A DNA stretch of 64,000 nucleotides. Origin: a virus (Duplodnaviria > Caudoviricetes). The notes beneath the pieces were generated by a model. The model saw nothing but the letters and a program-made list of their open reading frames with translations, was not told the origin of the DNA and did no database searches. Positions 10,813-15,647 of the stretch are shown here, in pieces. Position numbers and translations under genes: made by a program. Numbering within the stretch: position 1 is the first letter of the stretch; every line of letters begins with the position of its first letter. The stretch is taken from the IMG/VR virus record IMGVR_UViG_3300037962_000450, positions 1 through 64,000 of that record. One strand, given 5' to 3'.

Positions 10813-10909
10813 AGGCAGTACTCCTCAAAAGTTCACATCGTACACTCCTCCATTATACCATACATCGTCATTTTGTCAACCAAACTTTAGCTTATCCTGA
10901 TATATATAG

Positions 10910-10982
10910 TAGGGCTGGTGAGAATCGAACTCACGACACCCGCCTTATAAGGACGGCGCTCTCACCACTGAGCTACAGCCCC
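10910..10982 (-). tRNA. tRNA-Ile(UAU)
   Basis: Acceptor GGGGCTG/CAGCCCT, A73; anticodon arm CCGTC-CTTATAA-GGCGG; T-arm GTGAG-TTCGATT-CTCAC. Confidence 0.9.
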
Positions 10983-11021
10983 AAATGCCTTTTTATATCA
11001 GAAGGCTAACTGGTTGTATTG

Positions 11022-11191
11022 TGGAAGGGTGGGGTTTATGTATCACCCACAACGTTTCAGGGACAGATATGTCTACGGTTTGACCCGCTTCCCTACTTTG
11101 TACCACCAACTAAAGCCTCATCCATTCGGACATACTCAATAGTCGGTGTGCCTTGCCGCCTCTGCCTAGCTTCGGCGTTCAGCCACCTTCC
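11022..11191 (-). ncRNA. 170-nt expanded tRNA-like (cloverleaf) RNA of unknown class
   Basis: GGAAGG/CCTTCC-A ends, GTGGG/CCCAC T-like stem, CACCGACTA/TAGTTGGTG stem, AGGGA/TCCCT stem with inner hairpins; no ORF. Confidence 0.6.
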
Positions 11192-11224
11192 TACCAAGCG
11201 GGAGCTACCCGCCTGATATATATT

Positions 11225-11623
11225 TTAAGTTGGGTTCAATGCCAATACTGGCAGTTTACCATTTTTTAAGTCTAGTTCAACAAAGTCTGCTTGATGAACT
11301 GGTTTGTCTTGAAAGTCTACGAATGTATTAGCCTTGTAGGGGTTGTAATATATTTCATCCAGAACTGCCGGTGAGTGGTTGTCTGAAATATAGCCTCTAA
11401 CGAAAGCATGAACATTCTTACGCTTCTCTCGTATAACCTTAGCGTGTCCTGCCGGTTGGACTACGAACACACAGTCCTCTAGGCCAATAATGCTACAGTG
11501 GAACTTGACAAGACCAGCTTGCCTAACGCTCCAACACTTCTTATGCAGGTTTCGGTAGACCTCAATCTTTCGACTGGGGTCTACCAGAGTGACCTGCTCT
11601 TTATAGTCATCAGTGTTAATCAT
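11225..11623 (-). CDS. conserved hypothetical phage protein
   Basis: EVYRNLHKKCWSVR...VQPAG...EKRKNVHAFVRG pattern; ATG lies 6 nt after a -10 hexamer. Confidence 0.7.
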   Translation of the reverse strand: MINTDDYKEQVTLVDPSRKIEVYRNLHKKCWSVRQAGLVKFHCSIIGLEDCVFVVQPAGHAKVIREKRKNVHAFVRGYISDNHSPAVLDEIYYNPYKANTFVDFQDKPVHQADFVELDLKNGKLPVLALNPT

Positions 11624-11630
11624 GGTTATA

Positions 11631-11870
11631 TTATACCATATCACCAACAGATTTCAAGTAGATTTTGCACAAAGTTTTGAATCTTTTGTGCGTGCTTCCA
11701 TCTTGAGGGTGAGCCGCGACGATGACGCCGCTATCCTCAATCTTGACGAAACGCGAAGGCTTCTCCTGCCCGCACTTAACCCACTGACCAGCTTGCAACT
11801 TCAACTGACCAGTCCGAACCATGTGTGCCGTGTTGCTGTCCCAAAGGTCAACCGTCTTCGTGTAACGCAT
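11631..11870 (-). CDS. hypothetical phage protein
   Basis: 79 aa, AAGGAGAG RBS, promoter 11916-11943. Confidence 0.65.
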   Translation of the reverse strand: MRYTKTVDLWDSNTAHMVRTGQLKLQAGQWVKCGQEKPSRFVKIEDSGVIVAAHPQDGSTHKRFKTLCKIYLKSVGDMV

Positions 11871-12105
11871 ACCATCTCTCCTTGTGCTTAACTAGAAATC
11901 GTTTCTTGTGTCTCTATTATACTATATCGTCATTATATGTCAAGAGTCTTTAGGCTTTTCTTTGAAAATTTTCGCTTTTTTCGCTGGCTATCTTATCGAG
12001 TCTTAGATCCGGGAAGATTGGCTAAGACCTGGGGTGGCCGGGATGTAACCCCTTGGCCGGGAAGGGTTTGCGTCAAAAAACGCCTACGCATTTTTCGTGC
12101 CAAAG

Positions 12106-12179
<74 letters not shown>

Positions 12180-15257: not shown

Positions 15258-15647
15258 TGTGGCGACTTGCAGGGGATTTGCACCCCTGACCGGTTGCACT
15301 GTATATCTGGAGGAACTAAGCTGCTCCGTTGTATCCGTCGATTTGGTTAACCATCCCCTCGGGGAATCCTCGACTTCGTGTCGTACTTCAGACCAGTGGC
15401 TTATCAACCGGCGTAGCTGTACCAAGCCATATGTATTGTGCCGCGTTTATACCCCAGTGGCAGACGTTAGGCTTTCACTTTACCAAAGGGGAGCGGCGTT
15501 GTATGGTGCTGGTGAGTGTGGCGATCAACCACGCCTCTCATTCACTGCGACCCGATGCCTCGGACAGTGACACCCACGCCAGCGTCGTGGGCAGGTTGTG
15601 ATACCGGAAAAGCGAATTAACTTGCGGACTGACATGTCCAAGTCGCA
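15258..15647 (-). ncRNA. about 385-nt highly structured non-coding RNA with tRNA-like closing domain, class unassigned
   Basis: 5' GCGACTTG pairs with 3' CAAGTCGC; T-like hairpin CAGGGG-TGCAAAT-CCCCTG; nested CCGGTTG/CAACCGG, CACTG/CAGTG, GTCTG/CAGAT; many local hairpins; no credible ORF or RBS. Confidence 0.65.

Follow-up and report, generated by a model that had tools for sequence, protein, structure and literature searches.

Identity, extent and fold of the RNA

What is the cloverleaf-shaped RNA encoded on the minus strand directly upstream of tRNA-Ile(UAU) in the genome of this uncultured tailed phage? The question was addressed in a window of 64,000 nt (the whole stretch of DNA analysed here), for which a preliminary description made from the letters alone had proposed a non-decoding RNA of tRNA descent. 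Judged by sequence and covariance-model comparisons, the element at 11215..11018 (-), about 198 nt long, is a divergent manA-class phage structured RNA; the finding extends the known manA family and does not define a new RNA class. The explanation that best joins the observations, with an estimated probability of about 75%, is that of a divergent manA member that would be free-standing, co-transcribed with a gp82-like gene and tRNA-Ile, and self-associating by analogy with other manA RNAs.

The fold opens with a 5' hairpin; next comes a five-way junction, in which four arms and the closing stem produce the cloverleaf shape. Direct reading of the sequence recovered the stems previously listed at 11191..11022 (-), and this part of the proposed extent stands, but the 5' hairpin at 11215-11195 had been left out. 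This hairpin (11195..11215, -) is covered by the alignment to the manA model and has 8 bp, all of them covarying in an alignment of 33 sequences (8/8 pairs), and a UAGCU loop containing the palindrome AGCU. The acceptor-like closing stem, GGAAGG/CCUUCC as first described, has its 5' strand at 11186..11191 (-), pairing with 11028-11023 with compensatory changes in 5/6 pairs, and its 3' strand at 11022..11028 (-), where CCUUCC is followed in the alignments by a conserved unpaired A.

The D-like arm (helices 3-5; 11150..11183, -) comprises a GCU/GGC base, conserved GAA...AA flanks, an inner GCCG/CGGC stem and a loop with AGCUA; covariation backs this inner stem rather than the CGCC/GGCG register originally given. 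In the anticodon-like arm (helices 6-7; 11104..11148, -), the 9-bp stem CACCGACUA/UAGUUGGUG with its inner hairpin is present as reported, and the arm can be described as a 12-bp stem around a conserved GUCC-GAAU-GGAU hairpin, with the flanks AGUAU and GAGG. The existence of the inner hairpin thus holds but not its pairing as TCC/GGA, as 4 bp are formed here (GUCC/GGAU). Double changes were found in 10/12 pairs of the stem and in 2/4 pairs of the inner hairpin. The variable-like arm (helices 8-10; 11058..11095, -), UAGGGA/UCCCUG, contains the expected AGGGA/UCCCU pairing and its two sub-hairpins (GCGG/CCGU and AGA-CAUA-UCU); among the arms it pairs least well (76-92% of cells in the alignment of 33 sequences). 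The T-like hairpin (helix 11; 11029..11050, -), stacked on the closing stem, combines the 5-bp stem GUGGG/CCCAC with the 12-nt loop UGAUACAUAAAC, which lacks the T-loop consensus, both as noted before; it is 100% paired in the same alignment, with double changes in 3/5 pairs.

Covariation support for the fold

Evidence from the single sequence is limited: the predicted fold stands out only moderately from shuffles (z = -2.58; 6/200 as good), a result that would be compatible with a decaying pseudo-tRNA or a chance fold. The collection of homologues and the covariation analysis suggested in the preliminary description were decisive for this alternative. Across 33 distinct sequences including the window, in a model-fitted alignment, compensatory changes are pervasive, affecting both sides of 47/57 pairs in 11 helices, which contradicts the random, uncompensated substitutions of a decaying pseudo-tRNA. 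Standard pairs occupy 91.1% of cells, compared to 37-47% once the 3' partners have been displaced by 1-3 columns, and none of the shuffled controls (0/500) reached any of the observed pairing measures. As an independent check of this alignment, which was fitted to a covariance model, MAFFT and RNAalifold were run without any model on 12 members of the window clade and returned the same helices, with 22/41 pairs compensated. Likewise, the window differs from its nearest relative, locus L006, at many positions of the 5' half, nearly all of which preserve pairing. The pseudo-tRNA or chance-fold reading, refuted by these covariation data, retains a negligible probability, and the element is, on this comparative evidence, a conserved folded RNA.

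A 65-aa ORF on the opposite strand (11019-11216, +) was rejected in view of the compensatory substitutions and of 1-nt indels between close relatives; since these indels break the frame, they argue against coding.

The comparison of the window (10840-11300, -) with L006 (4440-4960, +) also revealed a mosaic boundary in the RNA gene. Near identity extends from about the middle of the RNA through its 3' half, across the spacer and the tRNA, as far as the following promoter. Divergence is seen on the other side, in the 5' half and at the end of the upstream gene, a pattern that suggests recombination within or beside the RNA gene.

Relationship to manA

Weinberg et al. 2010 (PMC2864571) reported manA from T4-like cyanophages, two gamma-proteobacteria and marine metagenomes, and considered it a candidate riboswitch. 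The window RNA aligns over the full length of the Rfam manA model (RF01745; model 1-192 of 192, over 11214..11019) with 21.3 bits, below the curated gathering threshold of 55.2, and with E = 0.0022, a value valid for the 501-nt search only; it is absent from the gathering scan of the whole window. Because its own RF01745 score is far below threshold, its manA membership rests on transitive homology.

Relatives were collected from IMG/VR by DNA patterns, yielding at least 36 loci and 33 distinct sequences counting the window, and a covariance model (R1) was derived solely from the window plus three of its close relatives. Among the loci collected by pattern, R1 gave 37 full-length matches, 33 of them distinct. 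The window clade scored above 119 bits (window, L006, L012, L056, L333, L009, L025, L329, L293/L332, L291, L342, L258 and L322), and more distant relatives scored 18-64 bits. Five of the collected RNAs lie at or above the manA threshold of RF01745 (L286, 64.1 bits; L317, 58.2; L344, 57.5; L264, 55.5; L255, 55.4), and all five were matched by R1 with E = 1.8e-15 to 8.7e-6. Relatives at eight further loci aligned to RF01745 over its full length with 27-51 bits, the scores of these other relatives forming a continuum over that range. As a model derived from the window clade retrieves threshold-passing manA RNAs, the window RNA represents a divergent, uncatalogued manA clade. Assignment to an existing Rfam family, the outcome that the preliminary description had set against its own reading, is essentially what emerged, in the form of a sub-threshold manA match transitively tied to above-threshold members. 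The curated manA model misses a whole clade of at least 13 loci and 12 distinct sequences.

The architecture is also that of manA: the 5' hairpin, closing stem and four arms of the multi-arm junction follow the order of the model and are backed by covariation, and the length is similar (198 nt compared to 192 model positions). The conserved junction nucleotides of manA are found as GUGnCUGAA, AAgG, GGUA, UUG before the last hairpin and A after the closing stem, corresponding to the shared blocks GUG-NCY-GAA, AAGG, GGUA, UUG-stem-loop-stem and final A; two of them had been imposed by the retrieval patterns. Phage origin and tRNA neighbourhood are further common traits. Compared to manA, the window RNA has a longer D-like loop (AAGCUAGGCAGAGG), a variable-like arm with two hairpins and the particular T-like loop UGAUACAUAAAC, and its anticodon-like arm holds one inner hairpin, whereas the Rfam manA consensus has two, including a GNRA-capped one. 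The host genome also differs, as the window phage is not a T4-like cyanophage and its terminase is just 26% identical to those of Basilisk-group Bacillus phages. The range of manA is widened past T4-like cyanophages and Photobacterium, into a different type of tailed phage.

Every homologue was collected by patterns requiring the blocks GUGGCNGAA and AAGGCACA, whose apparent invariance is an ascertainment effect. The first pattern, based on the T-loop, gave 2 true homologues among 10 loci, two looser patterns gave mostly chance matches among the matches listed, and a three-block pattern was the productive one. A pattern scan of genome contigs contained no true homologue among the 120 matches listed and is uninformative on absence from bacterial genomes. 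A blastn 'distant' search with 10850-11350 against the phage collection returned tRNA similarity only, with no homologue of the element, and no second copy was found in the 80.7-kb virus record.

Comparison with tRNAs

The cloverleaf outline raises the question of whether the element is, or derives from, a tRNA. Over 10851-11350, ARAGORN called the real tRNA-Ile alone, and it left the element uncalled in default and mitochondrial modes, with the intron option and at thresholds relaxed to 80-90%. The Rfam tRNA model (RF00005) at E<=10 gave no match in 10850-11350 except the real tRNA-Ile, and R1 matched neither the tmRNA of the window nor any of its three tRNAs. The element departs from a tRNA in its 6-bp (not 7-bp) closing stem, its 12-nt UGAUACAUAAAC loop and the lack of a 7-nt anticodon loop. 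From the earlier proposals, a cloverleaf-like, non-decoding structured RNA associated with tRNAs was thus borne out by the five-way junction, the covariation and the neighbourhood of tRNA genes. Descent from a tRNA found no support in ARAGORN, in the Rfam tRNA model at E<=10 or in R1, which is blind to the window tRNAs, and an intron-containing tRNA is likewise unsupported by ARAGORN, which found nothing with the intron option and lowered thresholds.

A different possibility is that the element mimics tRNAs without being one, its core acting as a mimic or decoy that would serve as a substrate of RNase P, RNase Z or CCA addition, or bind tRNA-directed host or phage factors. Several features resemble a class II tRNA (Ser/Leu type), including the cloverleaf outline with a long extra arm and the 6-bp closing stem, contiguous with the 5-bp T-like stem as in a tRNA acceptor/T minihelix. 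The UG linker, the 3-bp D-like stem GCY/GGC with GA...AA flanks (GAA...AA in the RNA) and the A before the next stem are comparable to the U8-D-stem-A26 segment, so that the UG-GCY-GAA...AA-GGC-A core resembles a class II D-arm. Beyond the closing stem, nearly every sequence continues with an unpaired A. Together, the closing and T-like stems, the trailing A and the D-arm-like core may favour the retention of tRNA processing ends (RNase P, CCA). Two of these tRNA-like blocks were required by the search patterns, so their invariance carries no weight here, and the corresponding blocks of the Rfam consensus are similar, not identical. tRNA and tmRNA genes are moreover enriched at manA-like loci, some directly abutting the RNA, and CMCompare reported a weak link of 13 bits between the tRNA and manA models, with a cloverleaf consensus (PMC3692125).

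Against these resemblances, the authors of CMCompare regarded the tRNA-manA connection as 'presumably a false link' (PMC3692125), ARAGORN in every mode and the Rfam tRNA model at E<=10 do not recognize the element, and R1 matches no tRNA. Compared to class II tRNAs, the window RNA, which no detector accepts, has a 6-bp closing stem, arms of 22-45 nt, an extra 5' hairpin, no 7-nt anticodon loop, no T-loop consensus in its 12-nt T-like loop and no encoded CCA. The mimic or decoy reading consequently appears doubtful; a tRNA-like character of the entire family could reconcile it with manA membership. A stronger form of it is considered unlikely. Here the core of manA, with its acceptor/T-like stack and D-arm-like junction, would genuinely mimic class II tRNA structure and be recognized by factors that process or target tRNAs, and manA particles would act on the phage tRNA/tmRNA economy. 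If true, the particles could serve, for example, as a decoy for a host anticodon nuclease or as a carrier of phage tRNAs, and the location of all three cage-forming phage RNAs (manA, ROOL and GOLLD) in tRNA islands would be explained. Neither the cloverleaf appearance nor the proximity to tRNAs is new for manA, as both were in print in 2013, when CMCompare cited Rfam for manA often adjoining tRNAs (PMC3692125).

Genomic context and transcription

In the window, the RNA lies between the stop codon of a gene and a tRNA. The upstream gene, of the Phage_L5_gp82 family (PF25735 / phrog_586; 11225..11647, -), has a stop codon that ends 9 nt before the RNA. The co-oriented tRNA-Ile(UAU) (10910..10982, -; ARAGORN and Rfam, 70.8 bits) is immediately downstream, at the distance of 39 nt reported in the preliminary description (tRNA at 10982..10910). 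The spacer (10983..11021, -), nearly identical in L006, can form a weak hairpin (GCCUU...AAGGC) and lacks a terminator. A sigma-70-like promoter, TTGAAA-16-TATAAT with TG (11630..11657, -), is the likely start of a unit comprising the gene, the manA-like RNA and tRNA-Ile. As no terminator-like site was detected between this promoter (11657-11630) and the next perfect promoter (10879-10852), the gp82-like gene, the RNA and tRNA-Ile appear to share a single transcription unit.

This layout suggests that the promoter at 11657-11630 would drive the gp82-like gene, the RNA and tRNA-Ile as one early transcript. RNase P cleavage at the 5' end of tRNA-Ile would then define or approach the 3' end of the RNA, which may be released or trimmed during tRNA processing. 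The RNA would act in trans as a free-standing fold, and would be neither a decoding tRNA nor a leader switch for a protein gene.

Promoter-like sites number 8 in this region, compared to 2.7 expected from shuffles, and two perfect TTGACA-16-TATAAT promoters occur within 1.1 kb (11916-11943, -, and 10852-10879, -). The direct repeat TATATATCAGG, present at 11212-11222 and 10896-10906 (-), brackets the manA-like RNA and tRNA-Ile; in L006, a near copy (TATATGTTAGG) is found upstream and an identical copy downstream. As a signal, this flanking repeat was rejected, since at least 2 copies occurred in 29/100 shuffles, within chance.

As manA is filed in Rfam as a cis-regulatory element, a leader or riboswitch that senses a ligand and controls the downstream gene has to be weighed across the relatives. 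Most manA RNAs are located in candidate 5' UTRs (Weinberg et al. 2010, PMC2864571), and some distant members fit this picture, with a ribosome-binding site and ATG 14 nt past the RNA in L286 and about 80 nt past it in L131 and L307. The context is therefore not uniform across the family. The 5'-UTR location, typical of manA and the basis of its 'cis-reg' label, does not apply to the window RNA, where the downstream gene is a tRNA instead of an ORF and no expression platform was found (no terminator or ribosome-binding site overlapping the fold). A tRNA is the downstream feature in two loci of the clade (window and L006). A strict terminator-like hairpin with a U-run is present within 170 nt in 5/12 clade members, compared to 8.8% of control windows, and in several further members a U-run comes immediately behind the closing stem. 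By sequence, the RNA of the window clade is usually followed by a terminator or U-run and not by an ORF. The neighbouring genes also vary between loci, and control of a downstream gene by a ligand-sensing leader is accordingly regarded as quite improbable for this RNA. As the RNA precedes a tRNA here and usually a terminator in close relatives, it looks free-standing and not like a leader switch.

The upstream side offers another explanation, namely a structure that stabilises the 3' UTR or marks the transcript end of the upstream early gene, with no trans function of its own. The RNA starts 0-12 nt past the stop codon of a gp82-like or SSB gene in seven loci, often with a terminator thereafter, as this explanation would predict. 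However, the 200-nt five-way junction with its conserved loops and junction nucleotides far exceeds what exonuclease protection needs, and the RNA follows unrelated genes (gp82-like, SSB) and is elsewhere found after a tRNA or far from any upstream ORF; this role is thus very unlikely. A conserved protein partner was also considered and rejected, as the gene upstream is gp82-like in some loci and SSB in others, and none of the neighbours recurs at every locus.

tRNA or tmRNA genes were found at 10/36 manA-like loci, compared to 17/310 control loci from the same scans (Fisher p = 1e-4), and on the same strand as the RNA wherever strands were compared. In two loci the order is the reverse of that of the window, with tRNA-Asp ending 16 nt (L269) and 11 nt (L301) before the RNA. 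These associations, which recall ROOL and GOLLD, add genomic support to manA RNAs being free-standing genes tied to tRNA/tmRNA islands rather than riboswitch leaders.

The manA-like RNAs of L269 (696-970, +) and L301 (10395-10669, -) are weak matches to R1 (17.9-19.3 bits). Pairing of a manA-like RNA with tmRNA genes was also observed in L258, L333 and L307/L336, the last being of the permuted alpha type.

Loop contacts and assembly

According to a preprint of July 2026, cryo-EM shows manA RNAs assembled in vitro into pentamer-based particles, namely decamers, octamers and an icosahedral-like cage of 60 subunits, in which kissing loops and a GNRA-receptor contact join the copies (bioRxiv 10.64898/2026.07.01.735769). 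The cage is an in vitro result and does not bear on cellular function; the free-standing, tRNA-island setting described above bears on the purpose of these cages. By analogy, the window RNA probably self-assembles, and loop-loop contacts would join copies into closed pentamer-based oligomers, as in other manA RNAs.

A candidate for a two-fold symmetric contact is the palindromic AGCU in the loop that caps the 5' hairpin. When the complementarity of all pairs of unpaired regions was screened, the self-complementarity of this loop alone stood out. AGCU is present in 19/33 sequences, and UUGCAA, UGAUCA and UUCGAA occupy the 7-nt loops of other lineages, so that a palindrome is kept while its sequence shifts by lineage, as a symmetric assembly contact might require. 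A strict test of loop palindromes gave modest support (4/9 loop types, p ~0.03), the GACG and UCGCC types not being palindromic. An intramolecular pseudoknot with the D-like loop is an alternative for the 5' loop, because UAGCU is complementary to the D-like-loop AGCUA in seven clade members; no covariation between these loops was seen elsewhere. The screen of all unpaired-region pairs revealed no clean covariation in any loop-loop pairing, and no consistent pairing of the T-like loop with the second variable-arm hairpin, or of the inner anticodon-arm loop with the first variable-arm loop.

Other cage-forming RNAs offer a comparison for a self-assembling manA member. ROOL and GOLLD, whose genes reside in phages and prophages and often neighbour tRNA islands, build cages that are RNA-only closed homo-oligomers (Kretsch et al. 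2025, PMC12286853); their genomic setting is similar to that of the window RNA. They are 3 to 4 times larger than the window RNA and unrelated to it in sequence and secondary structure. No Rfam match to ROOL or GOLLD was obtained anywhere in the window.

Other structured RNAs of the window

The preliminary description had also considered the element as a possible smaller relative of a 385-nt RNA of the window (15258-15647). Neither Rfam nor R1 with filters off provided a link: the best R1 score was 6.5 bits over part of the model, with 1.7 bits near the 385-nt RNA, and Rfam at E<=10 gave no manA match on the latter, only noise. The 385-nt RNA (15258-15647, -) ends in a 3' T-arm-like hairpin (CAGGGG-UGCAAAU-CCCCUG), a closing strand (CAAGUCGC), CACA and a terminator-like hairpin.

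Three further RNA genes share the strand of the manA-like RNA: a complete tmRNA (851-1191, -; 111 bits) with the tag AEKNFALAA, tRNA-Arg(UCU) (1825-1898, -) and tRNA-Asp(GUC) (12106-12179, -).
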